A DNA stretch of 49,713 nucleotides. It comes from a phage. Below, piece after piece: positions 21,601-47,741 of the stretch (within the stretch, counting starts at the first letter, position 1; the number at the start of each line of letters is the position of its first letter). The translations under genes were made by a program, and so were the position numbers. The notes below the pieces were generated by a model that ran no database searches, had not been told where the DNA came from, and saw nothing but the letters and a program-made list of their open reading frames with translations. Location: the sequence record NC_130088.1; one strand, written 5' to 3'.

Positions 21601-21642
21601 TAGCACTTTTTGCTAAAACAGCCATTCGATGCGTGGTATACT
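21601..21642 (+). promoter_or_regulatory. Conserved 19-bp box plus -10-like TATACT (class-2 promoter-like unit)
   Basis: TAGCACTTTTTGCTAAAAC, 21-nt gap, TATACT. Confidence 0.5.
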
Positions 21643-21674
21643 ACACGCATCAACCAACAAGAGAGGAAATAAAA

Positions 21675-21965
21675 ATGGAACAGCAATTCAATGAACAAGA
21701 CACTCAAGACGTGCGCGATCATGTAGGCGGATTTGTAAGCGCATTAGGCATTATGCAACGCCAGTTCTTACGAGTAATTGATCCAAGCGAATCACCGGAA
21801 ACTCTTGAATACGTTCGCAAGGTTGCATATTCGATTGATAGCGTTGTGTTAACAGTTCTTCAAATGGAGAATAACGAAGAACACCGCAAGATGATTAATC
21901 AGGCAAGTGAAATCATGATCCAGAATTTGATTGATTATCACAACGAGAACAAAGAAAAGCATTAA
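21675..21965 (+). CDS. Hypothetical protein
   Basis: 96 aa from ATG after AGAGAGG SD. Confidence 0.4.
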   Translation: MEQQFNEQDTQDVRDHVGGFVSALGIMQRQFLRVIDPSESPETLEYVRKVAYSIDSVVLTVLQMENNEEHRKMINQASEIMIQNLIDYHNENKEKH

Positions 21966-22011
21966 TTAACACGGCGGCGCAAGCCGCCATTATTAAACCG
22001 GAGTCAATGAA

Positions 22012-22674
22012 ATGAAATTTTCCGATCAAAACGCAAACGTAATTAAGGCATTGTTTGAGGCGCGTCAGTTATTCACAAAAGTAAAAAAGGATAAGCAAAA
22101 CACGCACCTGAAAAACAAATATGCAACTCTTGACAGCGTTCTTGATGCTATTATGCCTGGCCTTACTGATAAGGGTTTATTCCTTACTCAAGATCAGAAA
22201 GTTGGCGAAGATTTGAAATCAATGACGGTTTTAACTCGCTTCATTCACGTTGAATCAAATGAATGGGTTGAATATAGTTTCACGTTGCCAATGCAGAAAT
22301 TAGATCCGCAAGGTGGCGGCTCAACAAACAGCTATGCGAGACGTTATGCACTTTGTACCGCTCTTGGACTGGCAACAGCTGACGATGACGCAAATCTTGC
22401 CACCAAAAACGCGCAGGATTGGAAAAAAGATCTTGATGCTTGCGATAACCTTACAGACTTGCAAGAAACGTTTAAAACGGCTTACAAGCAATCTGACGCA
22501 GCAAACCGCCGAATCATTAAAGAGCATTACGACAAGCTGAAAGCAAAAATGGAAATCGGAAAGGCTCGTGGTTTTAATCCGGCTGAACCAGCGGCAAATG
22601 TTGCGAAGAATGAAAAAGTTGAAAACAAACCGCAACAGGAAGTAAAATCACAGTCTATCACTGACTTTGAATAA
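22012..22674 (+). CDS. Erf-like single-strand annealing protein (probable)
   Basis: 220 aa between exonuclease and SSB; sequence pattern consistent with the Erf family as recalled. Confidence 0.5.
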   Translation: MKFSDQNANVIKALFEARQLFTKVKKDKQNTHLKNKYATLDSVLDAIMPGLTDKGLFLTQDQKVGEDLKSMTVLTRFIHVESNEWVEYSFTLPMQKLDPQGGGSTNSYARRYALCTALGLATADDDANLATKNAQDWKKDLDACDNLTDLQETFKTAYKQSDAANRRIIKEHYDKLKAKMEIGKARGFNPAEPAANVAKNEKVENKPQQEVKSQSITDFE

Positions 22675-22675
22675 T

Positions 22676-22706
22676 TTATCGCGGGGCGATAACGCCCCGA
22701 TAAGGA
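22676..22706 (+). promoter_or_regulatory. GC-rich hairpin (CGGGGCG..CGCCCCG) directly upstream of the SSB ribosome-binding site
   Basis: Perfect 7-bp GC stem with ATAA loop, no T-run after it. Confidence 0.35.
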
Positions 22707-22712
22707 AATAAA

Positions 22713-23138
22713 ATGCACGTAATCACCGGAGAAATTCGCAAAGAGCCATTTGTAAAGCAAGGCGCAAACGGCACATTATACATCGTTGAGCTTTCGGAGT
22801 CATTTAAAGATCGTGAAGGTAATCGACAATACACCAATTACAAATTCTTCTTTAATGCTAAAAGCGACGGCATGAATAATTGGTATCGTGAAGCATTTCA
22901 GCAGGGTAAAGTTATTTCTGTATCATGCGATCAGTTACGCATTGATAGCCAGGAATACAACGGGCAGATTTATAACACATTGACGGCGGCGGGCTTTCCT
23001 AATCTTTTATTCAGTCAACGCGGAGAAGGGCAAGCGCCACAACAGCAGCAACCTCGACAGCAACAACAATCGCCACGCCAGCAAGCGCCTCAAAACAACG
23101 AGCCGCCTATGGATTTTGATGATGATATCCCATTCTGA
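22713..23138 (+). CDS. ssb: Single-stranded DNA-binding protein
   Basis: 141 aa; Gln/Pro-rich linker and acidic C-terminal tail MDFDDDIPF characteristic of SSB. Confidence 0.85.
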   Translation: MHVITGEIRKEPFVKQGANGTLYIVELSESFKDREGNRQYTNYKFFFNAKSDGMNNWYREAFQQGKVISVSCDQLRIDSQEYNGQIYNTLTAAGFPNLLFSQRGEGQAPQQQQPRQQQQSPRQQAPQNNEPPMDFDDDIPF

Positions 23139-23140
23139 TA

Positions 23141-23172
23141 AAAGAAAAGGAGCCGAAAGGCTCCTTTTTTAT
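23141..23172. terminator. Bidirectional terminator (AAGGAGCC..GGCTCCTT flanked by A-run and T-run)
   Basis: Between convergent ssb and tail-fibre genes. Confidence 0.7.
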
Positions 23173-25541
23173 TACTTAGCAATCTGAATAAACATTGATT
23201 GCATTTCCTCGATCATCTTTTTCATTTCTGCTACTTCATTTTTTAGCTCATTGATTTCATCTTGTTGCTTCTGAATGGTTTCATTCTGCTTATCTGAATC
23301 ATCAATCATTTCATTAATTGCGTTAACCAAAAGAGCAGTTACACCGCCATAGCTAACACCTAAATATTCTGAATCTGAAATCTTGTAAACCGCTTCCGGT
23401 AAAACAGTTTGCACGTCTTGAGCTATTACACCAGCCTCCTCAGAATAGAAAGAATATTCATCTTCATCAAGATTGTTGCGCTTAAAATAAGTGTAACCTT
23501 TTATTGATTTCACTTTTTCTTTAGCGCTTTCAATCTCTTTTAGGTTTGCTTTCAGGCGAATATCGGAAGTGTTAACCCATTGCACAGCAGACGCATAACC
23601 AGCATCGTTAAACCCATAAACAGCGCCCCTTACATTAAAATGAGCCTCGCAACCTCCAGCGCTATATCTGACAACATCAAGACCAGCAGCCCAATCGCCA
23701 CCCCATCGAACAACCTTAAAGACGTTTGCGGCAGCATCATCACCAGGTAACTCAACAAGAAGGCCGCAAGCACGATCGCGCCAAGCATCCCAACCTCCAG
23801 CGGCAATCTGACCACCAATTAGCGCATTACCGCCGCCAGTTCTAGCACCTGAAACTCTAATGCCGTTAGCGTTATTATCAACAGGCCATATATTTAAAAG
23901 TCCGTTAAGGTGCATGTTTTGAGCATCGAATGAAGACACATTTCTACCGTTGCACATTACTTGCAAAATGCCATCACCGCCCCACTTAAAGCCTGTATCA
24001 GTGTCACCAATTACTAACGCATTACTTCCAAGCGCATTACCAATACCCCTACCGATAACTATTGAATTGTAATTTAGCGCGTTGCCACTTTCATCAAACT
24101 GATAATAGTTTGTGTCGCCACCTTCTCTAGTTACTTGAATAGTTGCCTTTGCAATCCCACCCTGAATTTCGTTGTAAATTCTTGAGTATGAAAGCTGTAC
24201 ATTTTCTGGACTTTTGTTTATTAAATAAAGAATTCCAGAGTTTGCAGAGTTTGCAGAGTTTTTTTCTGTTAGGCTTATTCCTCTAAAAACAGGAATGTCA
24301 GTTTCACCAATGCCAAAGTTATTCCTTGCTTGGCTTACGTTTGCTGCACCTGTGCCGCCCTGTAGAATTCCAAGAGGAATATACTGTTGCGATGCGATAT
24401 TCCAGTAACCCCAACCATCGTTACCAACTGTAAGGTATTTGATCTTATCCGGCGACCGAATAAACGTTTCACCATCGCCCTGATCAAATCGGTCAATCTG
24501 GAAATTAATTCTTGCTTGCGTTACGTTTTCCGCACCAGTACCGCCAGCACCAACAGAAAGAGCGGATGTGCTGTTATCGCTATTTCTTGCAACTCGCCAC
24601 TCGCCGTTGTTTGCGATCCGTAATTCATAAGTCCATGCAGGGTTACGAAATGAGTTATAATCACCTGGATTTTGACCCTTAACTGAATTAACAGCCTCAA
24701 CTTTCAGCGCCTCCCTTGCTAAATCTTTATTAGCAAGATCATTAAGATTCTGATCCTTATGCAGAAGGTTTTCAGGGTTAACTTGTTGTGCCCATTGGCG
24801 AGCTTCATCACGCGCAGTTTCAGCGCCTTGTTTAGCGTTTCCGGCTGCAACGTTTGATTGTTCAGCGGCAAGTTGTGATTCCTTTGCTGCATCGCGAGCA
24901 TTAACAGCCTCGTTTTTAATTGATCCAATTTCAGCAACGGCGCTATCTTTTATTTGTTGCGTCTGCGTTTTTATTGCGTCAGTGTCTGCCTTAATCTGAT
25001 TGGTTTCATTGACGGCAGCATCCTTAATCTGTTGAGTTTCTGCAATCGCAGTATCTTTAATTTGCGTAGTCTCAGAAACAGCGGCATCCTTAATAGCTTG
25101 CGTGTCGTTTTTTAATTGCTCAGTTGCGGCGCGATCTGCATCCGTTTTTTGTGCGGAAGACTCAGCGCGAGCAACAAGATCCTGTAATGTTTTAAGGTCA
25201 AAGTTTTTGAAGAATTCAATTGCTTCCTCAATAACCGTTTCTTTACTTTGGTAATATCTCAGCGTTTCCGCTACATCTTGCGCCATTCCATCGACAGTTA
25301 GCGAGTCATTCAACAGGATTACATAATTTCCGTTTGCTACTGGCTCGCCGTCAGTCTGGATCGCTTTCATTTCCGTGTCGCTTACAATATCGCTGATAAC
25401 CGCCAGCTTTAAAGGCGTGGTTAAAAAAACGATTGTTGCGCCAGTGCGAATAAGAGAAAGCGGCTCACGCCATTTTGTGCCAGTACCAGTGATAACGCCT
25501 TGTGCGTCCATTGCAGCCGTACCAGTGCGATATAAAGCCAT
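23172..25541 (-). CDS. Tail fibre protein with C-terminal intramolecular chaperone (S74-like) domain
   Basis: 789 aa; N-terminal anchor, repeated IKDxAVxET coiled-coil units, Gly-rich beta-helix-like region, C-terminal SDIRLK... chaperone-like block. Confidence 0.75.
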   Translation of the reverse strand: MALYRTGTAAMDAQGVITGTGTKWREPLSLIRTGATIVFLTTPLKLAVISDIVSDTEMKAIQTDGEPVANGNYVILLNDSLTVDGMAQDVAETLRYYQSKETVIEEAIEFFKNFDLKTLQDLVARAESSAQKTDADRAATEQLKNDTQAIKDAAVSETTQIKDTAIAETQQIKDAAVNETNQIKADTDAIKTQTQQIKDSAVAEIGSIKNEAVNARDAAKESQLAAEQSNVAAGNAKQGAETARDEARQWAQQVNPENLLHKDQNLNDLANKDLAREALKVEAVNSVKGQNPGDYNSFRNPAWTYELRIANNGEWRVARNSDNSTSALSVGAGGTGAENVTQARINFQIDRFDQGDGETFIRSPDKIKYLTVGNDGWGYWNIASQQYIPLGILQGGTGAANVSQARNNFGIGETDIPVFRGISLTEKNSANSANSGILYLINKSPENVQLSYSRIYNEIQGGIAKATIQVTREGGDTNYYQFDESGNALNYNSIVIGRGIGNALGSNALVIGDTDTGFKWGGDGILQVMCNGRNVSSFDAQNMHLNGLLNIWPVDNNANGIRVSGARTGGGNALIGGQIAAGGWDAWRDRACGLLVELPGDDAAANVFKVVRWGGDWAAGLDVVRYSAGGCEAHFNVRGAVYGFNDAGYASAVQWVNTSDIRLKANLKEIESAKEKVKSIKGYTYFKRNNLDEDEYSFYSEEAGVIAQDVQTVLPEAVYKISDSEYLGVSYGGVTALLVNAINEMIDDSDKQNETIQKQQDEINELKNEVAEMKKMIEEMQSMFIQIAK
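24236..24260 (-). repeat. In-frame 9-bp tandem repeat (CAGAGTTTG x2.8) encoding NSANSANS within the tail-fibre gene
   Basis: Direct reading. Confidence 0.8.
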
Positions 25542-25582
25542 AATTTCACCTCATAGCATTTTTTGTTAAAATAGGTCATGTA

Positions 25583-25611
25583 ATTATGCTACAGCCATTT
25601 GTTACATGCAA
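25583..25611 (-). promoter_or_regulatory. Sigma70-like promoter TTGCAT-17-CATAAT for the tail-fibre gene
   Basis: Read on minus strand; GAGGTG SD follows. Confidence 0.55.
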
Positions 25612-25634
25612 TAAAAAACCCCGCCGAAGCGGGG
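25612..25634 (-). terminator. Rho-independent terminator (CCCCGC..GCGGGG plus T-run on minus strand) after the primase gene
   Basis: Perfect 6-bp GC stem, A6 on plus strand. Confidence 0.65.
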
Positions 25635-25701
25635 CATCGTTAACGACAACGAGAAGTCAATGAAACAGATTCATCGAAAAGTGTTAGTAGCAGGATGAAT
25701 A

Positions 25702-26645: not shown

Positions 26646-26676
26646 AAAAAACCTGGCACGATGATAAACCATGCCA
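26646..26676 (-). terminator. Terminator hairpin (CCTGGCA..TGCCAGG) with T-run on minus strand
   Basis: Dyad plus A7 on plus strand. Confidence 0.55.
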
Positions 26677-26687
26677 GGCCGGAATTT

Positions 26688-27296
26688 TTAGCAATCAGTG
26701 CTATCGACGGAAATCACAACGCGTTTCTTCTGATTGGCTTCCTTTGCTTTGCGCCGTTCTTCTTTCGCCTTATCGCGTTCAGCTTTGCGCCGCGCTTTCT
26801 CCTTCTCGCGTTCTTCTGGACTCATAGACCGCAACGGATCGTAAGGCCGCACAAATCCTCTTGCTTCCGCCTCCTCTTTGGTTACAAATCGCATCAGCTT
26901 TCTGTTGCTGCAACGATTCTCTAATGGCTTGCCGTTATTATCAAATTTGATATCTGGACGGCAATATGAAGCGCGGAAGCCGTTAAAACCTTTGCGTCTG
27001 TAATCTTTCTGGATCAGTTCAGCGCCTTTAGTTGAAATCATGCCGCGCTCTTTCCATCCCCATACTGTTTTAAGGTTAACGCCAATTTCACGCGCCAGGG
27101 CAGCGCAACCGCCATAAGCGCTAACCACTTCATCAAGCCTAGCTTTTAATCCTGCCCTTACTTCTTCCTTTAGTACCAGATAACCGCTAACAGGTGCGCG
27201 GCGCTTCCTGTCTTTACCACGCCTTACGCCGTTGTTACCATTGATTGTGCGTTTGTCGATTTCTCCCGTTGAGGCCGCAATTTTGATTTCGCTCAT
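26688..27296 (-). CDS. HTH DNA-binding protein with basic Lys/Arg/Glu-rich C-terminal tail
   Basis: HTH-like segment GGCAALAREIGVNLKTVWGW; AGGTGA SD; divergent from helicase gene. Confidence 0.45.
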   Translation of the reverse strand: MSEIKIAASTGEIDKRTINGNNGVRRGKDRKRRAPVSGYLVLKEEVRAGLKARLDEVVSAYGGCAALAREIGVNLKTVWGWKERGMISTKGAELIQKDYRRKGFNGFRASYCRPDIKFDNNGKPLENRCSNRKLMRFVTKEEAEARGFVRPYDPLRSMSPEEREKEKARRKAERDKAKEERRKAKEANQKKRVVISVDSTDC

Positions 27297-27307
27297 ATTT
27301 TCACCTA

Positions 27308-27349
27308 TAGCACTTTTTGCTAAAACTATTGAGTAAGTTTGTGTATGAT
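27308..27349 (+). promoter_or_regulatory. Conserved 19-bp box plus TATGAT (class-2 unit) upstream of helicase
   Basis: TAGCACTTTTTGCTAAAAC, 21-nt gap, TATGAT. Confidence 0.5.
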
Positions 27350-27384
27350 ATGGTGCAAATGGCATTTAGTCAAAAGGATAAGTA

Positions 27385-29358
27385 ATGATTCCTAACATTG
27401 AAAAACAGATTGAAGAACTTGGAGCGGAAAAGATAAAGGCAATACAAAAACGCTTCACAGTTGGTGAAATTGTGCCTTACGAATATCAATGCGTTGCATA
27501 CGTTGAGATCGCAAAGCGTTTAAGCCGTTATGAACATCCGTTTTTTGTTAAGGCGGCTGTATCGGCAGGTAAAACAATCATCTTTGCTATGGTTGCGGCT
27601 CAGTGCCGTAAAATGGGGTTGAAAGCGTTATTTCTGGCGCGTCAATCTGAAATTGTGGATCAGGATTCAAAAGAGATTAGCGCCTTTGGTGTTCCGAATT
27701 CCGTTTATTGCGCTGGCCTGAATACCAAAAGCGCTTATTTCCCGATTGTTGTCGGATCGGAAGGCACTGTAATTGGTGGATTGAATAAAGCGTTGGGTGA
27801 TTACGTCCCGCAAGTTTTAGGTATAGACGAATGTCATCAAGTCAACTGGAATGATATTGTTGAAGCCGAGGAAAACGGCGAAAGCATAGAGCAAATGATG
27901 ACACCGAAAGGTGAACCAGTTGAAGGCAATCCGTTGCTGATTGGTTCAGGCCGCGCACAATACACCATTATCATTGCAGAAATGCGCCGCCGTTGTCTTG
28001 AGACTTACGGTCATCAGTTGCGTATATTTGGAATGACCGGATCTGAATATCGCGGAATTGAGCCGATACTTGTCGAAGATAAAAGAATTCCTGGGTTTTG
28101 GCGTGAGCAGATCACAAACATTGATACTGATTACCTGGTAAAATTTGGTTCAGTTGTTCCCACTTATTTTGGCAATGTTGGTGATTTGGGTTACGACTTA
28201 TCAGAATTTACGCCAGTGAATGAATTTGGCGTTGCTGATTATGACCAGAAGCAATTAAAGGCCATGAGTGACAAGATTCACCAATCAGGAACCATGACGC
28301 AGAAAATAATGCAGATGGTTCACGAGGTGATGAAAAACCGCTTGTGCGCTCTTGTTACTTGCGCTGACGAAAGGCACTGCAAAGAGGCGGCGGCGGCGCT
28401 TCCGCCTGGCACGAAATATCACATTATCACCGGAAAAACTGGAGAGAAACAGCGGCGCTTATGGCTTGAGGATGCATATGAAGGGCGCGTTAAATACATC
28501 TTCCAGGTTCAGGCGCTAACAACTGGCGTGAACGTTCCTCCGTGGGATACTTCTGTTATTTTGCGCAAGATCGGAAGCCTGACGCTATTAACTCAGCTTT
28601 TGGGGCGCGGTATGCGTCAATTAAAAACTTACCATAAAGAAGTATTGGGAATGCACAAAACAGATCATCTTGTTTTGGACTTTTCCGGCACGATGTTTGA
28701 AATGGGTAATTTGTATTTCGATCCGATGTTAGAGCAAGCGCAATTCCAGTTACGTAAATCACAGGACAAAGATCCGAAATATTGCCCGATTTGCGGTACA
28801 GAAAATTCATTCTATGCTCGCCGTTGCATTAATGAGGATGAAAACGGAAATCGTTGTGAACATTTCTGGACGTTCCAGGAATGTGAGGATCAGATTGATG
28901 ACCGCACAAAGAAAGTTATTGTAAAAGGTTGCGGCGCAAAAAATGACGTTGCGGCGCGTGTATGCCGTTGCTGTAATGTTCAGTTACGCGATCCAAATGA
29001 TAACTTATCCGGCAAGATGTACCGTAAAAACGATTGGTGCGACGTGTTAGATTTTAATGTGACGCTGACAAAAAACCAGGCTGGCGTAATATTCTGCTAC
29101 ACGTTACGTGATAGTGGCGGCGTAGAATTCAGGGCATACGAAAAATATTTCCCTGAATCAGAACACAAGATATGTAAAACGCTTTGGACAAAGGCGGTTA
29201 GAACACATGTTATAGATCGCCAAGCCGCAAACTTTATGATCACTTGCCGCAATGCAATTAAGATCATGAGTTATGCGGGGCAAATATTGCCGCCAAAACG
29301 TGTTACCCATCGCAAGAACACAAAGAAAGAAGATTTGATCGCACAGAAGGAGTTTTAA
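27385..29358 (+). CDS. SF2 (DEAD/DEAH-like) helicase with C-terminal zinc-ribbon motifs
   Basis: Walker A SAGKT, DECH box, CxxC..CxxC clusters near C-terminus. Confidence 0.75.
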   Translation: MIPNIEKQIEELGAEKIKAIQKRFTVGEIVPYEYQCVAYVEIAKRLSRYEHPFFVKAAVSAGKTIIFAMVAAQCRKMGLKALFLARQSEIVDQDSKEISAFGVPNSVYCAGLNTKSAYFPIVVGSEGTVIGGLNKALGDYVPQVLGIDECHQVNWNDIVEAEENGESIEQMMTPKGEPVEGNPLLIGSGRAQYTIIIAEMRRRCLETYGHQLRIFGMTGSEYRGIEPILVEDKRIPGFWREQITNIDTDYLVKFGSVVPTYFGNVGDLGYDLSEFTPVNEFGVADYDQKQLKAMSDKIHQSGTMTQKIMQMVHEVMKNRLCALVTCADERHCKEAAAALPPGTKYHIITGKTGEKQRRLWLEDAYEGRVKYIFQVQALTTGVNVPPWDTSVILRKIGSLTLLTQLLGRGMRQLKTYHKEVLGMHKTDHLVLDFSGTMFEMGNLYFDPMLEQAQFQLRKSQDKDPKYCPICGTENSFYARRCINEDENGNRCEHFWTFQECEDQIDDRTKKVIVKGCGAKNDVAARVCRCCNVQLRDPNDNLSGKMYRKNDWCDVLDFNVTLTKNQAGVIFCYTLRDSGGVEFRAYEKYFPESEHKICKTLWTKAVRTHVIDRQAANFMITCRNAIKIMSYAGQILPPKRVTHRKNTKKEDLIAQKEF

Positions 29359-29360: not shown

Positions 29361-29768
29361 ATGGTTACTGATAAAGGCGATTATCTGGAGTATTACGACA
29401 AATCAGATCCAGATGACAGAAAAGAGGAAGCGCACCAGGTTGATTCTTATTCATGGTTAACATATGAGTTTCCAATGTGGCTTGTTTGGCACACTAAAAA
29501 CGAAGGGAAGAAAACAATAGGCACAGCAGTAAAGGATCAGCAAGCAGGTGTAAAAAAGGGAGTAAGCGACATTCTAATCCTGACTGGTTTTATTGGCTGC
29601 AAATATGCATTCATTGCAATTGAGCTTAAACGAGCCAACAAGAAAGGAACTAAAGTAAGCCAGGAACAAAGGGAATTCTTGCGCCGCGTTAGGGAATGCG
29701 GAGGATTTGCCGCAGTATGCTATGGTGTAGATCAAGTAAAATTGGCTATCGCAGACGCTACAAAATAG
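29361..29768 (+). CDS. VRR-NUC domain nuclease
   Basis: 135 aa; D..IELK PD-(D/E)XK-like core; directly follows helicase. Confidence 0.55.
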   Translation: MVTDKGDYLEYYDKSDPDDRKEEAHQVDSYSWLTYEFPMWLVWHTKNEGKKTIGTAVKDQQAGVKKGVSDILILTGFIGCKYAFIAIELKRANKKGTKVSQEQREFLRRVRECGGFAAVCYGVDQVKLAIADATK

Positions 29769-29808
29769 CACTTTTTGTTAAAACAGGCGCGACGGAATGC
29801 GCCATAAT
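29766..29808 (+). promoter_or_regulatory. Conserved 19-bp box plus CATAAT (class-2 unit)
   Basis: Box starts at the TAG stop of the upstream gene. Confidence 0.5.
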
Positions 29809-30861: not shown

Positions 30862-31092
30862 ATGAGCATTCGATTAGCCGATCACATGAAATGGGATTTA
30901 TTTGTCGGTATGACAATTCGCTTACTTGATAAGCATGGTTATAACGATGATAAAATGGAGTTGATAAACTGCCTGGATATGACATTTGACGAAATCAAAG
31001 TTGCGCCTTTGTACATGTGGGAAAGAAAAATTGAGCACGACCTGATACAATACAAACGCAGAGAGGGCGCACGATTTTTCAATGTGAAATAG
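30862..31092 (+). CDS. Hypothetical protein
   Basis: 76 aa, overlapping start/stop with dam. Confidence 0.4.
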   Translation: MSIRLADHMKWDLFVGMTIRLLDKHGYNDDKMELINCLDMTFDEIKVAPLYMWERKIEHDLIQYKRREGARFFNVK

Positions 31093-31142
31093 CACTTTTT
31101 GTTAAAACCCGCTACGGCGGGTTTTGTATTATGTGCTTAACG
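31090..31142 (+). promoter_or_regulatory. Conserved 19-bp box plus hairpin plus TATTAT (class-2 unit)
   Basis: Box begins at the TAG stop; CCCGC..GCGGG hairpin in spacer. Confidence 0.5.
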
Positions 31143-34237: not shown

Positions 34238-34280
34238 ACTATACCCGATACAAGATCGGGTGTTTTAACAAAAAGTGCTA
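34238..34280 (-). promoter_or_regulatory. Conserved 19-bp box plus TATAGT (class-2 unit, minus strand)
   Basis: Box/gap/-10 read on minus strand; CATCGAAAC leader follows. Confidence 0.5.
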
Positions 34281-34475
34281 TTCGAATTTTCTTACGTGAA
34301 TAAGCAATTCACCATCTTGATTTGTCAGTTGATGCTCTTGATCTTCAAACGCTCTCATATCACTGTAAAGCAACAGCATTAGCGCATAGACAAAATCATC
34401 ATGCTGAATTTGCATTGCTGAACTTTCTTTCAAAATAAGATCTATCAAATGCTGGCTTGCTGAATAATTCTTCAT
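34278..34475 (-). CDS. Hypothetical protein (start uncertain)
   Basis: ORF overlapping the upstream gene end; may start at an internal ATG. Confidence 0.3.
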   Translation of the reverse strand: MKNYSASQHLIDLILKESSAMQIQHDDFVYALMLLLYSDMRAFEDQEHQLTNQDGELLIHVRKFE

Positions 34476-36401: not shown

Positions 36402-36444
36402 ATTATAACGGCAACATTCTACAGCCTTTTAGCAATTCGTGCTA
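36402..36444 (-). promoter_or_regulatory. Conserved 19-bp box plus TATAAT (class-2 unit, minus strand)
   Basis: Box contains the TAG stop of the upstream gene. Confidence 0.5.
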
Positions 36445-36690
36445 TTTGATCGGCTCAACCCTGGCTAATAACTTTCCGTCTATAATGCTATGACATTCAA
36501 GAGTTTTAGGATCGAATGCAAGCGAACGATGGAACGTATGACCAATCAGCAAATATGAATGCTTATCCCTGATGCGATAGACCGTTTCACCTTCCTTTAA
36601 TGACGATATCGCACTAAAAACAACCTTGTAACGATATTTTTGCATAGCCTCAGAACGGTGAGGAATGTAATCTTTTTCCGGTAAACTCAT
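36442..36690 (-). CDS. Hypothetical protein
   Basis: 82 aa. Confidence 0.4.
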   Translation of the reverse strand: MSLPEKDYIPHRSEAMQKYRYKVVFSAISSLKEGETVYRIRDKHSYLLIGHTFHRSLAFDPKTLECHSIIDGKLLARVEPIK

Positions 36691-37081: not shown

Positions 37082-37124
37082 ATTATGCCGGATACGTGAT
37101 CCGGCGTTTTAACAAAAAGTGCTA
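37082..37124 (-). promoter_or_regulatory. Conserved 19-bp box plus hairpin plus CATAAT (class-2 unit, minus strand)
   Basis: GCCGGAT..ATCCGGC hairpin in spacer. Confidence 0.5.
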
Positions 37125-37817
37125 TTTCTGATTTGCCAGGCATACAGCAAGCGCAAAGCCGCGCGGAGTGAGTGAGCGGATCAGCTTTGTTCGCTTAGAC
37201 TTGCCGCCGAGCTTTTGCCAGCCTGGATTGTTGTTCCCTGTTGGCAATACTGCGTTTGTATCCGGCATTACAAAGCCGTTACCCGTCCAAAGACAAGTTT
37301 TTTTGGTGTACGCATCGCGAGCGGGAATGATTTCAGGAAAGTGAGGATGTTTATCATCTTCCGGCAACAGACCTCCAAACGCGCAAGGATGAAAGATAAA
37401 ATCAGGTTGCCGCCACATTGACGACAGAACACTAACAGGATTCTCAATCATATATGGAACGTTAAACCGATCCGCAATATTGGCAGCAATCTTTGCCGTT
37501 TCAACCGCCTTTTTCTGGAAGTCTGGATCACGTTCACGCTTTGCTGCAAAGTGACGCGATCCGCTAACAGCTAAATCAGTGCATGGAGGGAATGCAATAA
37601 TAAAATCTGGAGTGCCAAAGACGCGCATCATTGCGTTATGCTGGAATGATAATCCGATCCACTCATTCAAATAAACGATGTTGGGATGAGTCACGCGCAC
37701 TGATTGGTAATCACCATGATCAGCACCGTCGAAATTAAAGCACAGCACTTTGTGACCACGTTCAGCCCACGGCAACGCAGCATAACCAGAACCATCAAAT
37801 AGTGAGAAAATAAGCAT
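37122..37817 (-). CDS. Putative DNA cytosine-5 methyltransferase-like protein
   Basis: FDGSG (motif I-like), FPPC (PC catalytic motif-like), ENP (ENV-like); start set at internal ATG with AAAGGA SD; unusually short for this family. Confidence 0.4.
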   Translation of the reverse strand: MLIFSLFDGSGYAALPWAERGHKVLCFNFDGADHGDYQSVRVTHPNIVYLNEWIGLSFQHNAMMRVFGTPDFIIAFPPCTDLAVSGSRHFAAKRERDPDFQKKAVETAKIAANIADRFNVPYMIENPVSVLSSMWRQPDFIFHPCAFGGLLPEDDKHPHFPEIIPARDAYTKKTCLWTGNGFVMPDTNAVLPTGNNNPGWQKLGGKSKRTKLIRSLTPRGFALAVCLANQK

Positions 37818-38494: not shown

Positions 38495-38537
38495 ATGATA
38501 CCAATCAGAGCGTTATCGTTTTTAGCAATTCGTGCTA
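38495..38537 (-). promoter_or_regulatory. Conserved box (GAATTGC variant) plus TATCAT (class-2 unit, minus strand)
   Basis: Box overlaps the last codons (NSTNC*) of the upstream small ORF. Confidence 0.5.
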
Positions 38538-38689
38538 TTTACGGCGATAAACGGATATCCTGTTAAATCTGCATTTCTATAACGTGCAGACCTAACCCAA
38601 CAGCCGCCTTTGCTCATAATTAAAGCGTTTTTATGGCGAATGTTCACGCGGTAAATTCTTCCGGTTTTTATGTTTTTGAAGTAGGTCAT
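38522..38689 (-). CDS. Small hypothetical protein (55 aa, below ORF-track cutoff) ending NSTNC
   Basis: TGATG-type coupling to the upstream gene; hand-translated; C-terminus encoded by the conserved box. Confidence 0.35.
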   Translation of the reverse strand: MTYFKNIKTGRIYRVNIRHKNALIMSKGGCWVRSARYRNADLTGYPFIAVNSTNC

Positions 38690-39232: not shown

Positions 39233-39275
39233 ATTATGCCAAAACAAACCGGATCGCTTTTAACAAAAAGTGCTA
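39233..39275 (-). promoter_or_regulatory. Conserved 19-bp box plus CATAAT (class-2 unit, minus strand)
   Basis: Box/gap/-10, CATCGAAAC leader. Confidence 0.5.
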
Positions 39276-39377
39276 TTTAATTAAAATACGAATACCTTTT
39301 CGCACGCTTTCCGTCGCCTCCGTAATGGTCATTAGCAACAGCAAGAATCCAAGCGTTAGGAATAAAAAATAGCTTCA

Positions 39378-39572: not shown

Positions 39573-39805
39573 TTCATCACCTCAATTGAATAAATACTTT
39601 CAACTCCTGGCGCGTATAACCGATCTCCATCTTCAGTTATGCAAAGACAAAGGGCAAGGCCGCGATTGTCTGAAATATGCAAGTCATTTTGTCTATCCAT
39701 CAAAATTTCATATTCGCGATCTTCATCAAAGCGCCAAACGCTTAACATGCACTTTCCAGATGATTTAACTTTTACTTTCTTTCCGGCGAAATTTAAACGA
39801 CTCAT
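39569..39805 (-). CDS. Hypothetical protein
   Basis: 78 aa. Confidence 0.35.
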   Translation of the reverse strand: MSRLNFAGKKVKVKSSGKCMLSVWRFDEDREYEILMDRQNDLHISDNRGLALCLCITEDGDRLYAPGVESIYSIEVMK

Positions 39806-40020
39806 TGCGCCACCTCCACAGTTTCAAATACGGTATTGAATGCCAGAAGTTTAAATTTCTTGCCAGGCTCAACCACTGCGATATTCCAGGTAATGCCGCC
39901 GTGATATGCAACCATATCATCAATATCAACAGTAACCTCAGTACCTTTTTTGAACAATCCTTTTTCGTGGCTCGCATCGCGTACAGTAACCACAGTTTCG
40001 AATTGAGTTTGAATTTCCAT
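39802..40020 (-). CDS. Hypothetical protein
   Basis: 72 aa. Confidence 0.4.
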   Translation of the reverse strand: MEIQTQFETVVTVRDASHEKGLFKKGTEVTVDIDDMVAYHGGITWNIAVVEPGKKFKLLAFNTVFETVEVAQ

Positions 40021-40051: not shown

Positions 40052-40094
40052 ATTATATCAAGATACCCCGATCCGGTTTTAACAAAAAATGCTA
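40052..40094 (-). promoter_or_regulatory. Conserved 19-bp box plus TATAAT inside a hairpin loop (class-2 unit, minus strand)
   Basis: GGGGTA..TACCCC stem around the -10. Confidence 0.5.
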
Positions 40095-40095
40095 T

Positions 40096-40561: not shown

Positions 40562-40604
40562 ATCATAGCAATTCGTGACTGATTGGTTTTAACAAAAAGT
40601 GCTA
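40562..40604 (-). promoter_or_regulatory. Conserved 19-bp box plus TATGAT (class-2 unit, minus strand), first unit of the leftward operon
   Basis: Box/gap/-10, CATCGAAAC leader. Confidence 0.5.
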
Positions 40605-40613
40605 TTCATGCAG

Positions 40614-40643
40614 TAGACCGATTGGTCTAGACCGTTTGGTCTA
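40614..40643. promoter_or_regulatory. Operator-like composite palindrome TAGACC-gatt-GGTCTAGACC-gttt-GGTCTA
   Basis: Three GGTCTA half-sites in alternating orientation; a fourth GGTCTA at about 41086. Confidence 0.4.
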
Positions 40644-40700
40644 ATGAACGCATCGTTTTGTGTATCGAACGCATTCATGATCCTGTTACGTGATCGTTAT

Positions 40701-40781
40701 ATGATCAGATGATGATTGATGTGTGAGATTTTGTGATTGAAATTGATTTGATTTGATTAGATTTGAGTAGTGAGTGAGTAG
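40701..40781. repeat. Iteron-like array of short direct repeats (GATT / TGATTGA / GTGAGT units) in AT-rich DNA
   Basis: Direct reading; no ORF. Confidence 0.5.
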
Positions 40782-41247
40782 AAATAATCACACCTTGCCG
40801 ATCAGTGAAAACTTTTCCCGCAAAACATCACTCCAGGCTACGCGCTGTTATCTTCCGTTCATGGGTGTTCACAAATCTATCCGGCGTAGTTCTCCGACGG
40901 TTCTATGTGTTAGCCACACAAAAAGAACAAAATAAAACTCTATATAATAATAATTAAAACAGTAAGTTATCTATATATATGTATTTATTTGTTTCTATAC
41001 TGTTTCTAATGTTCCATATGGTTAGTGGTGGGTGATATATTGTTGATGGTGGTATTTGGTTAATATTTAGCCTATTGCGCCTGGTCTAGTGGTGGATTGA
41101 GAAAAATATATTTATATATAGGAATCCGCGAAAATTCATGAACGTATGAACAGCCAAAGAACGCGTTTTCAATTTCAAGTAAAACATTCACTTACGCTGA
41201 AAATTTGTTCCACTATAGGTATGGAACGTAAGCACACAAAAAACTAC

Positions 41248-41276
41248 TTGACGAGAACAAATGGCGGCGATAATAT
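41248..41276 (+). promoter_or_regulatory. Sigma70-like promoter TTGACG-17-TAATAT (early promoter B)
   Basis: Hexamers read directly; leader and SD paralogous to promoter A. Confidence 0.65.
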
Positions 41277-41762: not shown

Positions 41763-41765
41763 ACC

Positions 41766-42224: not shown

Positions 42225-42247
42225 CGGATTACATCCTGATTGGTAAA

Positions 42248-42290
42248 TAGCACTTTTTGTTAAAACTCAATTGGGGTGGTTTGGCATAAT
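42248..42290 (+). promoter_or_regulatory. Conserved 19-bp box plus CATAAT (class-2 unit)
   Basis: Box/gap/-10, CATCGAAAC leader. Confidence 0.5.
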
Positions 42291-42926: not shown

Positions 42927-42987
42927 GCAGTTGGCACAATGAACATGTAATGCAATTCTACCGCCACAGAATAAAGAAAATGATCAA

Positions 42988-43030
42988 TAGCACGAATTGC
43001 TAAAACTAAATCATGGGCATTTGTTATAGT
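42988..43030 (+). promoter_or_regulatory. Conserved box (GAATTGC variant) plus TATAGT inside a hairpin (class-2 unit)
   Basis: GGGCA..TGCCC stem around the -10. Confidence 0.5.
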
Positions 43031-43064: not shown

Positions 43065-43637
43065 ATGTTAAAAGCGAATGAAATCAACTTCCCGATCATC
43101 TTTAATTTTCCTGCTGATTATACAATGAAGAACATAACATTCGAAAATGATTCAGGCAATGGCACCTGGGCCAATGGGAATAAAAGCGGATTGCCGCTAT
43201 CATATTTCATTAAACAGCATAATGCTCAAAACCCATACAACACAGAGGGTAAGCCATATTTTTACAAAATGGCGGCAAAGAAAGAGAAAAAGCGAGAAGA
43301 TAACGATCTGTTAGATGCGCTGAAATATTTAAATATCAGGACTGGCCATGTTAATTTAAACGGTGCTGTATTTACTGCGTCAGTCGGATCTAAAGATTAC
43401 GATTACATTTGCAAGGTTGAAAATATGCCAGTTGGCGCAGCGCTTTTAGGTGTTCAGCGTGAAAGTGGCGAATGGGACGAGTTGAAATTTAAACCTCGCC
43501 GCATTGAAGTACACGACGATGTTATTTGCTTGCTTTCCGGTTATTCTGGAGGTTACAAGAGCGGCAATAATTACGGCGCTGAAATCAACATTAAGCGCGG
43601 CACTAACGTAAAAATCAAAAACAGCACGAATTGCTAA
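43065..43637 (+). CDS. Hypothetical protein ending NSTNC
   Basis: 190 aa, SD AAAGGAG; C-terminus encoded by the conserved box. Confidence 0.5.
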   Translation: MLKANEINFPIIFNFPADYTMKNITFENDSGNGTWANGNKSGLPLSYFIKQHNAQNPYNTEGKPYFYKMAAKKEKKREDNDLLDALKYLNIRTGHVNLNGAVFTASVGSKDYDYICKVENMPVGAALLGVQRESGEWDELKFKPRRIEVHDDVICLLSGYSGGYKSGNNYGAEINIKRGTNVKIKNSTNC

Positions 43638-43664
43638 AACAGAATTTTGGGCTTGCGGTATAGT
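43622..43664 (+). promoter_or_regulatory. Conserved box (GAATTGC variant) plus TATAGT (class-2 unit)
   Basis: Box/gap/-10. Confidence 0.5.
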
Positions 43665-44023: not shown

Positions 44024-44063
44024 CACGAAATGTTAAGCGGCCATGTGTGCTGATTGGTACAAT
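44021..44063 (+). promoter_or_regulatory. Degenerate conserved box plus TACAAT (class-2 unit)
   Basis: TAGCACGAAATGTTAAG, 22-nt gap, TACAAT. Confidence 0.4.
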
Positions 44064-44095
44064 GACCGCATCAACCAACAATAGAGGATAGAAAA

Positions 44096-44203
44096 ATGTC
44101 AAAAGAATCAATTAAGCAGTTTCTGAAATACGGCTCTATGATTGTGCTCGCTACCGTTGTGCTGGCTGGCATAGCTTACAGTGTCATCGAATTTGTGGGG
44201 TAA
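44096..44203 (+). CDS. Tiny membrane peptide (35 aa; below ORF-track cutoff)
   Basis: SD AGAGGA; hydrophobic core MIVLATVVLAGIAY. Confidence 0.35.
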   Translation: MSKESIKQFLKYGSMIVLATVVLAGIAYSVIEFVG

Positions 44204-44206
44204 TGG

Positions 44207-44749: not shown

Positions 44750-44922
44750 AACTAAAATGCATCGGTGAATATCCAGGTTTTACGGTTGGCAACATGTACA
44801 ATGCAACAATCGGAATGGATCACACATTTTGTTATGAATGCTATGTTGTCATTGATGATGATGGTGATTCACGTAGCATTGATTTCGAAACAGAGGATTT
44901 TATAGAGGATCGTTATCTGTGA
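44746..44922 (+). CDS. Small hypothetical protein (58 aa; below ORF-track cutoff)
   Basis: ATGA coupling to upstream gene; acidic C-terminal half. Confidence 0.3.
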   Translation: MKLKCIGEYPGFTVGNMYNATIGMDHTFCYECYVVIDDDGDSRSIDFETEDFIEDRYL

Positions 44923-45019
44923 TTGAAAACTATGATCCAATGGCGTTTGCCTGGGGCGTTGGTGCTTTCGTGGTGGCGGTTGTGATTTGCTTATGGGATA
45001 TAAACCGGATGGATAGATA

Positions 45020-45205
45020 ATGCTTACTGCTTTTTTAATTTTGATTGTCATTATGCTTTACGTTTGCGGCGCTTTCCTGATGCGAGCGCTACTAAAAGAG
45101 GCTGACGCTGATGATAAGGATAGTTGGAAGCCGATTATTTTATGGCCTGGATATATCATCGTGCCGATTTACGAACTAATCCGCGATGGTGAGTTTAAGT
45201 GGTAA
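45020..45205 (+). CDS. Small membrane protein
   Basis: 61 aa, N-terminal TM helix. Confidence 0.4.
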   Translation: MLTAFLILIVIMLYVCGAFLMRALLKEADADDKDSWKPIILWPGYIIVPIYELIRDGEFKW

Positions 45206-45206
45206 A

Positions 45207-45249
45207 TAGCACTTTTTGCTAAAACTTGCTAAGGCACATTTGATAAAGT
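45207..45249 (+). promoter_or_regulatory. Conserved 19-bp box plus TAAAGT inside a hairpin (class-2 unit)
   Basis: GGCACA..TGTGCC stem. Confidence 0.5.
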
Positions 45250-45282
45250 GTGCCTTGTCGAGACAAGCAAGGAGAATGACAC

Positions 45283-45579
45283 ATGAAAGTTTTTATGATT
45301 AAACAGTTTGGAAGCACTGCATATTATATCATCAACGACGAGGGAGATATTTTCATTTCGAACTATCCGACTCTTGAAGTTGGGCGTCATTTCAGAAGTT
45401 CAGTTGACGAAAAAGGAATTATCAATATGGTTGAGTGTGGAATGATGGTTCCCTTCAATAAAGAAGCGGCTGAATTATTCCAGCAATCACAGATCCGAAA
45501 GCGCAACCGCAATATTATTTGCTTTACCGTCGCAATGGTTGTAACTGTTGGCTCAATCTTACTTGGAGTGTGGGCGTGA
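45283..45579 (+). CDS. Hypothetical protein with C-terminal TM segment
   Basis: 98 aa, SD AAGGAG. Confidence 0.45.
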   Translation: MKVFMIKQFGSTAYYIINDEGDIFISNYPTLEVGRHFRSSVDEKGIINMVECGMMVPFNKEAAELFQQSQIRKRNRNIICFTVAMVVTVGSILLGVWA

Positions 45580-45761
45580 TGAATCTTGATAATAAAGTTG
45601 AAACGCAAAAGACGATTGATTATCTGCGTGACCTTGCCGACAAGCTGGAGAATAACCAGATTCATTTAAATGAGATCGTTATTGAATCGCGCAACGTTTG
45701 TTGGAACGTTGAAGAAGAAACATTGACAATGCAAGTTTTAAAGGCGGTAGACAATGGCTAA
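45579..45761 (+). CDS. Hypothetical protein
   Basis: 60 aa from ATG overlapping upstream stop. Confidence 0.35.
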   Translation: MNLDNKVETQKTIDYLRDLADKLENNQIHLNEIVIESRNVCWNVEEETLTMQVLKAVDNG

Positions 45762-46329
45762 AATTATCATCCTTAACGCGCCTCCAGGTGCTGGTAAAGA
45801 CACAATCGGCAAGATGATTTCTTTCTATTCGCCTGGTGAGCAATGCCGCATCATTAGCTTTAAAGAGCCAATGTTTGACATTGCATTAGCTATCCTGGGC
45901 AAAGAGAACTATAAGCGCTTCATGTTGGCTTATGATGACAGAGAGCAGAAAGAAAGGCCGCAAACATTCCTGATGGGTATGTCACCGCGTGAGTTCATGA
46001 TCTGGATTAGCGAGGATGTAATCAAACCTAAATTCGGCAAGGATTATTTCGGCGTAAGGTTTAACCAGAAAGTAAAAGAGTGTGATGCTCCTGTTGTTTG
46101 CACTGATGGTGGTTTTCCAGATGAAATTATCGCTCTAATCAATGCTGGTAATGAGGTTAAGCTATGTCGATTGCATCGCGACGGGTTCACGTTTGCAGGT
46201 GATAGCCGCAACTACATTCGAATCAATCCATATTACCAGAAAAACGGATATAGTGAGCACGATTATAAATTGGTTGATAAGCAACCGAATGTAACTGTAA
46301 AGGAAATTATTAGCGATCACCTTAAATAG
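45754..46329 (+). CDS. P-loop nucleotide kinase (dNMP-kinase-like)
   Basis: Walker A PPGAGKDT near N-terminus; size about 190 aa. Confidence 0.55.
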   Translation: MAKIIILNAPPGAGKDTIGKMISFYSPGEQCRIISFKEPMFDIALAILGKENYKRFMLAYDDREQKERPQTFLMGMSPREFMIWISEDVIKPKFGKDYFGVRFNQKVKECDAPVVCTDGGFPDEIIALINAGNEVKLCRLHRDGFTFAGDSRNYIRINPYYQKNGYSEHDYKLVDKQPNVTVKEIISDHLK

Positions 46330-46369
46330 CACGAATTGCTAAAACTTGCGCAAGGCCATTTGTTATAGT
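46327..46369 (+). promoter_or_regulatory. Conserved box (GAATTGC variant) plus TATAGT inside a hairpin (class-2 unit)
   Basis: GGCC..GGCC stem around the -10. Confidence 0.5.
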
Positions 46370-46409
46370 GGCCTTATTCAAGAGAAGCAACCAATCAGAG
46401 GAATAAGCG

Positions 46410-46607
46410 ATGAAAATCAAATGCACAAAATCAAACACCCTGAATCTGACAGTTGGCGCGATTTACCACATGGAAGAAGGTGTAAACGGGTTTAGCCCAA
46501 CTGTAACGCATGAATACGGCGGTCACTTCTTCTTAAACGGTAAAGACGGATTATCTGTAAACGTTGGCTCTTTCGTACTTGCAGAATTTGAGATCGTGGA
46601 GGAATAA
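46410..46607 (+). CDS. Hypothetical protein
   Basis: 65 aa, SD AGAGGA. Confidence 0.4.
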   Translation: MKIKCTKSNTLNLTVGAIYHMEEGVNGFSPTVTHEYGGHFFLNGKDGLSVNVGSFVLAEFEIVEE

Positions 46608-46609
46608 AA

Positions 46610-46774
46610 ATGTTCTGGATTCATTCGCCGCAAGGGTTGCTTTATGTGCCTGGAGTTGAATTAGAAGAACGACGCGACGGCGACACGGTAAACATCATAA
46701 CGAAGGATTCAAAAGGCCACACTCTTAAAACGTATGTTTTTAACACTCCGGTTAAGGTCGAAAAAGATGATTAG
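46610..46774 (+). CDS. Small hypothetical protein (54 aa; below ORF-track cutoff)
   Basis: SD GGAGGA. Confidence 0.35.
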   Translation: MFWIHSPQGLLYVPGVELEERRDGDTVNIITKDSKGHTLKTYVFNTPVKVEKDD

Positions 46775-46949
46775 ATTTATTGGTTTTGTGGCATTGCTTA
46801 TGTGCGGAATATTGCTTACTGACAATGACACTTGGCAAAGCGCTGTTGGCGGTTTACTTATTTTTCTTGCTGGTGGCATGGTTGGCAGTGATGACGCAGC
46901 AAACAAGAATAAACTTTCCGATCATTTACGCAGAGAGACAAAACGATGA
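46767..46949 (+). CDS. Small membrane protein
   Basis: 60 aa with two hydrophobic segments. Confidence 0.35.
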   Translation: MIRFIGFVALLMCGILLTDNDTWQSAVGGLLIFLAGGMVGSDDAANKNKLSDHLRRETKR

Positions 46950-47191
46950 ATAGAAAAATGCTGGTACGCGCATTCGCGAAGATTGCTAAAAGATGGGGTG
47001 ATTCAGCTAAAACACCTTACACGTTTAGTATGTACGGTTACAAGAATGCTCGCGCATGGGGTCGCATCATTGCAGATAACTATGAATCCGAAATGCTGGA
47101 TGCTTACGCAAGCTGGATTGATACGCCGCTAAATGAATGGGGCCAGGCTGAATATGATTGTTTTGCTGATGAAGAAATTTCTTGTTGGTAA
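46946..47191 (+). CDS. Hypothetical protein
   Basis: 81 aa. Confidence 0.4.
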   Translation: MNRKMLVRAFAKIAKRWGDSAKTPYTFSMYGYKNARAWGRIIADNYESEMLDAYASWIDTPLNEWGQAEYDCFADEEISCW

Positions 47192-47203
47192 GGAGAACAA
47201 AAT

Positions 47204-47701
47204 ATGAAAGCTAAAAATGATTTTTATAACTACCTGACAAAAGGCCGTGACTATACCGTTTTGAATAGCATAGATACTCTTTACCTGGTTGTTGCTGATA
47301 ATGGCGTTAGAGTTTGGCTTGATAAAACTCTTTTCGAAAGCGAGCACCTAAGTAACGCAAAGCGGATCGCAGATGAAGCAAGCGCATTAGCAGAGCGTGA
47401 ACGAATTCGCGATATAGTAGCGGAGCAGGTTAGAAATTCATGTTCACCTGGTGGCGATATCTTCAAATCAATGCGCGGTGAAATGACGGTTGGAATTCAA
47501 GATCGCGTAATTTCAAAGTCAGTTGATTCTGTAATTGAGAATGCGCGATTCAATGCGTTGATTAACTCAGAGCATAACGAATACGTCAAAGTATTAGAGC
47601 AACTGCGTGAAGTGCTGCGAGTGCCGGAAGGTGAAAATATAGTGACTCATGCAAAGGTTGTAAGAGCGTTGGCTGATGCGCTGATTGGCCTGCAAAAATA
47701 G
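47204..47701 (+). CDS. Hypothetical protein
   Basis: 165 aa, SD AAGGAG. Confidence 0.5.
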   Translation: MKAKNDFYNYLTKGRDYTVLNSIDTLYLVVADNGVRVWLDKTLFESEHLSNAKRIADEASALAERERIRDIVAEQVRNSCSPGGDIFKSMRGEMTVGIQDRVISKSVDSVIENARFNALINSEHNEYVKVLEQLREVLRVPEGENIVTHAKVVRALADALIGLQK

Positions 47702-47741
47702 CACTTTTTGTTAAAACTTCCGCGAGGGCATTTGTTAAAGT
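47699..47741 (+). promoter_or_regulatory. Conserved 19-bp box plus TAAAGT inside a hairpin (class-2 unit)
   Basis: Box starts at the TAG stop of the upstream gene. Confidence 0.5.

Follow-up and report, generated by a model that had tools for sequence, protein, structure and literature searches.

We analysed a stretch of 49,713 nucleotides (nt) of phage DNA (NC_130088.1, the window), which constitutes the full genome of Citrobacter phage vB_CfrD_Devorator (OL539461.1; megablast, 100% identity), a T1-like phage of the family Drexlerviridae, genus Tlsvirus; window coordinates are offset from those of the OL539461.1 record by +6 below about 20.3 kb and by +7 above. Nineteen copies of a conserved box were identified between positions 21601 and 47717 (search with TAGCACKWWTTGYTAAAAC, up to two mismatches; 0.01 expected), eleven on the plus and eight on the minus strand. 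An initial annotation, made from the letters of the window alone, had correctly recognized this repeat but counted 18 copies (11 plus, 7 minus), having overlooked one minus-strand copy, probably that at 26685. The box is preceded by A in 19/19 copies, giving the 20-mer ATAGCAC(T/G)(T/A)(T/A)TTG(C/T)TAAAA(C). Two more degenerate copies lie beyond the range considered in that annotation, at 6407-6426 (minus) and 16285-16304 (plus), and the late structural block (1-20 kb) contains no box in a promoter layout. The box itself has been described before, and published work does not explain what it does. In TLS, a phage of the same genus that is described as virulent, German et al. 2024 (PMC11447400) reported the same element as a 21-nt intergenic direct repeat (aaATAGCACnnnTTGnTAAAA, 18 copies), all copies being oriented with transcription and start codons following after about 76 nt, and saw the same repeat in T1, Rtp, and Rogue1; observation of the box is therefore not new. 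Just three intergenic sigma70-like promoters were found in TLS, which leaves early expression in T1-like phages unexplained, and the authors suggested stoperators, enhancer-binding sites, or UP elements as functions of the repeat and listed its function as an open question. New is the reading of the box as a marbox, i.e., as a site of the type used by the host activators MarA, SoxS, and Rob.

Downstream of each box, a -10-like hexamer begins 18 nt (n = 16) or 17 nt (n = 3) past the box end; a gap of 21-22 nt, as claimed initially, is obtained only when counting from the internal TTGYTA. The hexamers include the good -10 matches TATAAT, TATAGT, CATAAT, TATGAT, TATCAT, TATTAT, TATACT, and TAAAGT, and 11 of the 19 promoters have a TG extended -10 (TG at -15/-14). 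Likeness to TTGACA at the -35 position reaches at most 3/6 (mean 2.4; spacers of 16-18 nt), and the core idea of the initial annotation, promoters that have a good -10 and no usable -35 at legal spacings, stands. The conserved box is placed where a class II activator would sit. Orientation toward the downstream gene, said to be invariable, holds for 18 of the 19 copies, the exception being the copy at 25553 (plus; Table 1). This copy (25553-25572) is reversed and located just upstream of the Shine-Dalgarno sequence of the tail-fibre gene gp27 on the minus strand.

The boxes are tightly fitted to gene boundaries. The upstream gene terminates within or immediately before the box, the TAG of which doubles as its stop codon in eight cases, while gp29, gp50, and gp66 extend 16 nt into the box and thereby acquire C-termini of the form (D/N)ST(D/N)C. 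Start codons follow about 55-58 nt after the box. The leader CATCGAAAC, whose occurrence after the boxes had been pointed out before, is present as an exact copy in five promoters (about 0.4 exact copies expected by our own arithmetic) and in each of them begins 1 nt before the predicted start site. Both early operons had been thought to open with sigma70 promoters, which applies to the rightward operon (TTGACG-17-TAATAT), whereas the leftward operon opens with a box promoter (Table 1). The annotated starts of gp24, gp32, gp63, gp66, and gp29 (21633, 29807, 42271, 43029, and 27365, respectively) fall inside a promoter module, 4-22 nt after the box, and better starts with a Shine-Dalgarno sequence are available about 55 nt past the box; mapping of the box promoters thus corrects several deposited start codons. 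The label of gp24, 'tail length tape-measure protein', looks wrong for an early protein of 110 amino acids.

The marbox has the 20-mer consensus AYnGCACnnWnnRYYAAAYn, and activators of the MarA/SoxS/Rob type are present in Citrobacter and other Enterobacteriaceae. The published MarA motif is the 15-mer GCAHWWWWTGYYAAA, which the box (GCACTTTTTGTTAAA) fits at 15/15 positions. Exact matches to this motif occur 14 times in Devorator and 11 times in T1, compared to 0-0.1 in shuffled sequences. With at most one mismatch there are 21 matches in Devorator (about 0-1.3 expected over the exact and one-mismatch searches), 22 in T1, and 21 in TLS (3.3 expected); the 42 kb of Klebsiella phage Snook contain 13 (1.0 expected) and the 22 kb of phage Motto contain 8 (1.2 expected). 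These five phages yielded a pooled set of 71 boxes that are followed by a -10 after 16-19 nt. Positions 1 and 2, which are outside the search motif, are A in 67/71 (94%) and Y in 70/71 (99%) boxes, as the 20-mer consensus demands, and the most variable positions 8, 9, 10, 14, and 20 correspond to n, n, W, Y, and n of the consensus. In all 71 pairs and in 18 of the 19 Devorator copies the box is in forward orientation, with GCAC distal and AAA proximal to the -10, and the spacer between box and -10 measures 18 nt in 60/71 promoters.

Class II sites for MarA, SoxS, and Rob as well as RamA, including those in Salmonella promoters, are in forward orientation over the -35 and are centred at about -41/-41.5 in promoters with a canonical -10 and no recognisable -35. 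Known Escherichia coli sites deviate from the 20-mer consensus to a similar or larger extent than the phage boxes (one mismatch), with one mismatch each in mar (ATGCCACGTTTTGCTAAATC) and micF (ACAGCACTGAATGTCAAAAC), two in nfo, and three in inaA. At micF, exactly 18 nt separate the marbox from TAGAAT, and the annotated RNA 5' end comes 7 nt after this hexamer; at inaA and nfo, the best forward marbox is followed by 18 nt and then TATAGT or TATCAT, and the spacer at fumC is 17 nt. The supplement of PMC12052159 gives target genes without site sequences. In sequence, orientation, spacing, and -35/-10 composition the phage boxes agree with class II promoters, the start sites being predicted.

The search for the motif in related phages that had been recommended initially revealed the boxes and the layout seen in Devorator in TLS, T1, Snook, and Motto as well. 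T1 belongs to another subfamily (helicase 62% identical) and has boxes and -10s at the same spacing, with intervening spacers that differ. Boxes are absent from Aeromonas phage pIS4-A and Vibrio phage K221, which share the helicase.

From the sequence match, the geometry, and the conservation described above, we infer that the boxes are probably marbox sites of class II, sigma70-dependent promoters that are bound and activated by host proteins of the MarA/SoxS/Rob type, a reading to which we assign a probability of roughly 0.55. A monomeric host activator with two helix-turn-helix motifs (MarA, SoxS, Rob, RamA group) would bind ATAGCAC..TTGYTAAAAC with the GCAC end facing away from the -10 and the YAAA end over the -35 position, which would centre the site near -41. 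Bound activator would recruit RNA polymerase to the often TG-extended -10, and transcription would begin about 7 nt past the hexamer, at the A of CATCGAAAC, to give a Shine-Dalgarno-containing leader of about 30 nt. About 18 such promoters would drive replication, recombination, and small early genes at 21.6-47.7 kb. The initial interpretation is thus retained as far as activator-type promoters with a box in place of the -35 are concerned; it overlooked that the box equals the consensus marbox, which directs attention to host MarA/SoxS/Rob more than to an activator specific to the phage. That virulent enterobacterial Drexlerviridae as a whole family run their early genes on these host proteins is a tentative extension, possible but doubtful.

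Several points weigh against activation by host proteins. The box includes a pseudo-dyad (TAGCA/TGCTA, 5-N5-5) with its centre near -42, which suits a dimeric phage helix-turn-helix protein too, and half of the promoters have an extended -10, which may make the need for an activator doubtful. The E. coli phage Sortsne shares the replication module yet has no boxes, so that their presence does not follow from an enteric host alone. Pseudomonas phage Motto (ON843697), published as a phage of P. aeruginosa, has the same boxes. Either its host assignment needs checking or its boxes function without enterobacterial MarA/SoxS/Rob. To our knowledge, P. aeruginosa has no MarA/SoxS/Rob orthologues. The regulator gene gp29 (Table 1) co-occurs with the boxes and is preceded by a sigma70 promoter of its own, which interlocks with a box promoter. 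Finally, our literature searches gave no paper tying T1-like phages to marbox, MarA, SoxS, or Rob, and searches on the box sequence returned nothing relevant.

The binding protein could alternatively be encoded by the phage. Scanned against Pfam, the non-structural proteins gp23-gp86 (without tail-fibre protein gp27) showed no AraC-type domain, no MotA or AsiA domain, and no repressor or integrase, the latter two being absent from the annotation as well. A phage MarA mimic was rejected on the grounds that the scanned set has no AraC-type domain and that gp29 has a single Cro-like helix-turn-helix as opposed to the double one of MarA. Also rejected as activator was gp58 (DUF7174), the first gene after the rightward sigma70 promoter, which has no homologue in the box-carrying phages T1 and Snook; its model (predicted local distance difference test, pLDDT, 76) has a weak winged-helix likeness that is not significant (E of at least 0.06). 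The best candidate is the conserved gp29, which would be expressed early from its own sigma70 promoter. Homologues of gp29 are encoded by all box-bearing phages examined (Devorator, TLS, T1, Snook, and Motto), and none was found by tblastn in the box-less pieces of Aeromonas phage pIS4-A and Vibrio phage K221, Sortsne being outside this search; Sortsne has no gene between primase and helicase. Phages with gp29 homologues are overwhelmingly from Enterobacteriaceae hosts. Motto and Vibrio phage Vc1 (NC_054898), both T1-like, have reported non-enterobacterial hosts and gp29 homologues.

The gp29 protein has P22_Cro/YdaS-like Pfam hits and a confident Cro-type helix-turn-helix, and its model (pLDDT 82) aligns with Cro proteins at about 2.1-2.9 Å over 55-67 residues (Foldseek probability 1.0 to Xfaso1 and 0.97 to N15 Cro; E of at least 0.047, template modelling score 0.26 on the query). 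It could be an activator of the class II type, comparable to lambda cI at PRM or to controllers of restriction-modification systems, in a middle-gene cascade as proposed in the initial annotation, or a repressor or 'stoperator' binder that shuts off early genes; the marbox likeness would then be coincidence or reflect competition with host proteins. Such a role would accommodate the TAGCA-N5-TGCTA pseudo-dyad near -42, the reported growth of Motto on Pseudomonas, and the switch-like look of the gp29 promoter (TTGACT-17-TATCAT), whose -10 region is also that of the helicase box promoter. It is nevertheless unlikely in our view: the box is asymmetric, with the second arm TGTTA in 31/71 copies and flanks (A before, AAAAC after) that have no mirror partners, the putative recognition helix of gp29 varies among phages with identical boxes, and a chance match to all 15 marbox positions together with orientation and micF spacing has a probability of about 1e-6 or less (our own arithmetic from information content). 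Moreover, better candidate operators for a dimer exist. Two overlapping perfect TAGACC-N4-GGTCTA palindromes (TAGACCGATTGGTCTA and TAGACCGTTTGGTCTA) at 40614-40643 occur nowhere else in the genome and precede the first leftward box promoter by 8 nt. They are present in TLS and absent from the pieces of T1, Snook, and Motto; they resemble an operator for a dimeric helix-turn-helix protein and would suit one better than the asymmetric box does. At 27296-27385, the gp29 promoter (minus) and the helicase box promoter (plus) use a common -10 region on opposite strands, an arrangement also found in T1 (TTGAAT-17-TATAAT) that might switch expression in either direction between regulator and replication genes.

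A further alternative is a box that needs no specific protein and serves as a conserved cassette boundary for module exchange by short homology, the recombination-linker alternative of the initial annotation, or as an UP-like or bent-DNA aid to extended -10 promoters. The boxes lie exactly at gene boundaries and often provide the upstream stop codon, the phage encodes RecE-like and Erf-like recombinases, phased A-tracts flank the box, TG extended -10s are frequent (11/19), and three breakpoints of similarity between Devorator and TLS are at most 12 nt from a box. However, breakpoints are not enriched near boxes (3/24 within 60 nt versus 2.0 expected, P = 0.32); one of the three is a reverse-strand match between paralogous box promoters, and the other two are probably similarity resuming at the conserved box. 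A linker needs neither a fixed orientation nor the fixed 18 nt to the -10 that 60/71 promoters in five phages have, and the invariant GCAC and TG cores and the location at -50 to -31 are unlike UP elements. We regard a protein-free function as improbable, and marbox sites of host-activated promoters remain the preferred interpretation.

In agreement with the initial annotation, the spacer or the -10 often lies within a hairpin: 13 of the 19 downstream 45-nt segments fold with z-scores of -2 or lower, far better than shuffled sequences. In four modules the hairpin is located in the spacer and followed by a T-rich -10 region, and simple scanning scores these as intrinsic terminators; in about ten modules the -10 is in the hairpin loop or upper stem. 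The T1 annotation marks the same hairpins as rho-independent terminators. The stem sequence differs in every hairpin, and it is therefore the pairing that is conserved. These features could mean that the element acts mainly at the RNA level, as a terminator or processing hairpin between genes of which 'box' and '-10' are parts. Yet five modules without a significant hairpin keep both box and -10, the box is outside the stems, and the unit has features of promoters, namely TAnnnT with its distance fixed at 18 nt, TG at -15/-14, and a start codon that constantly lies about 55 nt away, which makes a mainly RNA-level element very improbable. Transcripts started at the promoters themselves lack the 5' arm, and hairpins can therefore act only on read-through RNA. 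With marbox promoters as the preferred reading, the spacer or -10 hairpins would act on RNA that reads through from the gene upstream, some as intrinsic terminators, so that each unit would be a compact cassette of stop codon, terminator, promoter, and leader. We infer a role of the hairpins as terminator, stabiliser, or insulator, which is the least secure part of our account.

Table 1. Box promoter modules, further box copies, and associated regulatory features in the window (z, folding z-score; spacers are counted from box end to -10)
Feature	Position	Strand	Characteristics
gp24 promoter module	21600..21642	+	Marbox ATAGCACTTTTTGCTAAAAC, 17 nt, -10 TATACT (TG extended); hairpin z -3.6
Atypical copy ATAGCATTTTTTGTTAAAAT	25553..25595	+	Poor -10 TACAGC; no plus-strand gene downstream
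Primase gp28 promoter module	26661..26704	-	Marbox ATAGCACTGATTGCTAAAAA overlaps last gp29 codons; 18 nt; -10 TATCAT inside strong terminator-like hairpin, z -5.4
Helicase gp30 promoter module	27307..27349	+	17 nt, -10 TATGAT; overlaps gp29 promoter -10 (other strand)
gp32 promoter module	29765..29808	+	Box TAG is gp31 stop codon; spacer hairpin; -10 CATAAT
gp35 promoter module	31089..31132	+	Box TAG is gp34 stop codon; -10 TATTAT; spacer hairpin CCGC..GCGG plus T run scores as intrinsic terminator
gp41 promoter module	34238..34281	-	Terminator-like spacer hairpin; -10 TATAGT; leader CATCGAAAC
gp44 (DUF3987) promoter module	36402..36445	-	GAA-type box; -10 TATAAT in hairpin loop, z -5.3
gp46 promoter module	37082..37125	-	Spacer hairpin; -10 CATAAT
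gp49 promoter module	38495..38538	-	GAA-type box overlaps gp50 end; TG extended -10 TATCAT; no hairpin
gp52 promoter module	39233..39276	-	TG extended -10 CATAAT; leader CATCGAAAC
gp56 promoter module	40052..40095	-	TG extended -10 TATAAT in hairpin loop; leader CATCGAAAC
gp57, first promoter of leftward early operon	40562..40605	-	TG extended -10 TATGAT; leader CATCGAAAC
gp63, first box promoter of rightward operon	42247..42290	+	TG extended -10 CATAAT in hairpin; leader CATCGAAAC
gp66 promoter module	42987..43030	+	GAA-type box; TG extended -10 TATAGT in hairpin, z -3.9
gp67 promoter module	43621..43664	+	Box ACAGCACGAATTGCTAAAAC overlaps gp66 end; -10 TATAGT in hairpin, z -4.2
gp71 promoter module	45206..45249	+	TG extended -10 TAAAGT in hairpin, z -4.2
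gp74 promoter module	46326..46369	+	Box TAG is gp73 stop codon; TG extended -10 TATAGT in hairpin
gp79 promoter module	47698..47741	+	Box TAG is gp78 stop codon; TG extended -10 TAAAGT in hairpin, z -3.6
Extra reversed copy ATAGCATTTTTTGTTAAACG	6407..6426	-	Between gp7 and major capsid gene gp8; T1 and TLS equivalents
Extra degenerate copy ATAGCACAAAAGGTTAAAAG	16285..16304	+	Abuts tail-fibre gp22 start codon; no -10 at 17-18 nt; TLS equivalent
gp29, Cro-like helix-turn-helix regulator	26688..27296	-	Likely true start ATG at 27296
Sigma70-type gp29 promoter	27345..27373	-	TTGACT-17-TATCAT; overlaps helicase box promoter
Sigma70-type promoter before gp58	41248..41276	+	TTGACG-17-TAATAT; start of rightward early operon

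Some further observations concern the surroundings of these features. The extra reversed copy near the major capsid gene creates TGCTATATT on the plus strand upstream of gp8. The best sigma70-type promoter within the scanned 20-40 kb (TTGACT-16-TATAAT, 11/12) is located at 20488-20515 (plus) and overlaps the start annotated for gp23 (exonuclease VIII), the true start of which is probably further downstream. The small early, box-driven protein gp56 (39802-40020, minus) matches Pfam PF25180, 'phage antiviral trigger protein Gp54' (E 2e-28). The non-coding region of 780 nt between the divergent early operons has short G/T-rich repeat runs (gatttgatttgattagatttgagtagtgagtgagtag) at 40700-40790 that could relate to an origin.

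If the boxes are used by host activators, phage gene expression would be linked to the regulon of multidrug efflux, porins, and TolC, and infection would be coupled to the antibiotic, oxidative, or bile-stress state of the host. Replicating phage DNA, with about 20 consensus sites per copy, could in turn titrate the regulators and blunt efflux and the stress response, which includes TolC, the receptor used by TLS. Rob is activated in the bile-rich gut, and the reading would bear on phage behaviour in this environment and on phage therapy combined with antibiotics. It also offers a concrete and quickly testable answer to the question that the TLS authors raised on the repeat.

Comparison with known systems sets the box apart from most elements that it resembles in part. 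The sigma54 consensus TGGCAC-N5-TTGCW requires GG at -24 and GC at -12, both invariant and set exactly 12 nt apart, whereas the box (TAGCAC-N3-TTGC) has AG instead of GG in all 71 copies and a spacing that is 2 nt short. UP elements are A/T-rich sites for the C-terminal domain of the RNA polymerase alpha subunit at about -40 to -60, upstream of the -35; the box stands in for the -35, at about -50 to -31, and contains an invariant GCAC and G13. Nor is its 3' half, TGnTAAAAC, an extended -10, given that the last base (equivalent to -7) is C and that a far better hexamer follows at a fixed 18 nt. The middle promoters of T4 are alike in having a phage box in place of the -35, a good -10, and a similar TTGCT core. 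The MotA box, however, is centred at -30, about 9 nt nearer the -10, with its TGCT core about 14 nt from the -10 (about 12 nt when given for the box), and requires MotA and AsiA. In the phage promoters the TGCT core is about 23 nt from the -10 and the scanned proteins contain no MotA or AsiA domain, and the initial analogy to MotA-type promoters therefore fails as a class assignment. The stoperators of mycobacteriophage L5 are likewise many asymmetric copies of one site that are oriented along transcription in short intergenic gaps, but they bind the prophage repressor of a temperate phage and keep no fixed distance to a -10, whereas the Devorator boxes are at a fixed 17-18 nt and neither the annotation nor the Pfam scan gave a repressor or integrase. 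Lambda cI at PRM and restriction-modification controllers illustrate that proteins of the Cro/cI fold, which gp29 has, can activate from near -42 via sigma region 4; their operators are symmetric and few, unlike the asymmetric site in Devorator with its approximately 19 copies, which equals the host marbox. The study of TLS (PMC11447400), unlike ours, did not pair the repeat with a -10 or link it to the marbox. The closest counterpart is E. coli micF, the archetypal class II promoter of MarA/SoxS/Rob (RamA). It is a single chromosomal promoter with proven activation and cryo-electron microscopy structures, whereas the phage has about 19 near-identical copies that are set against upstream stop codons and followed by spacer hairpins. 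Its marbox (ACAGCACTGAATGTCAAAAC) matches the phage box at 15/20 bases, including GCAC, TG, and AAAAC, and micF, centred at -41.5, is likewise oriented forward, with 18 nt before its -10 and without a usable -35.

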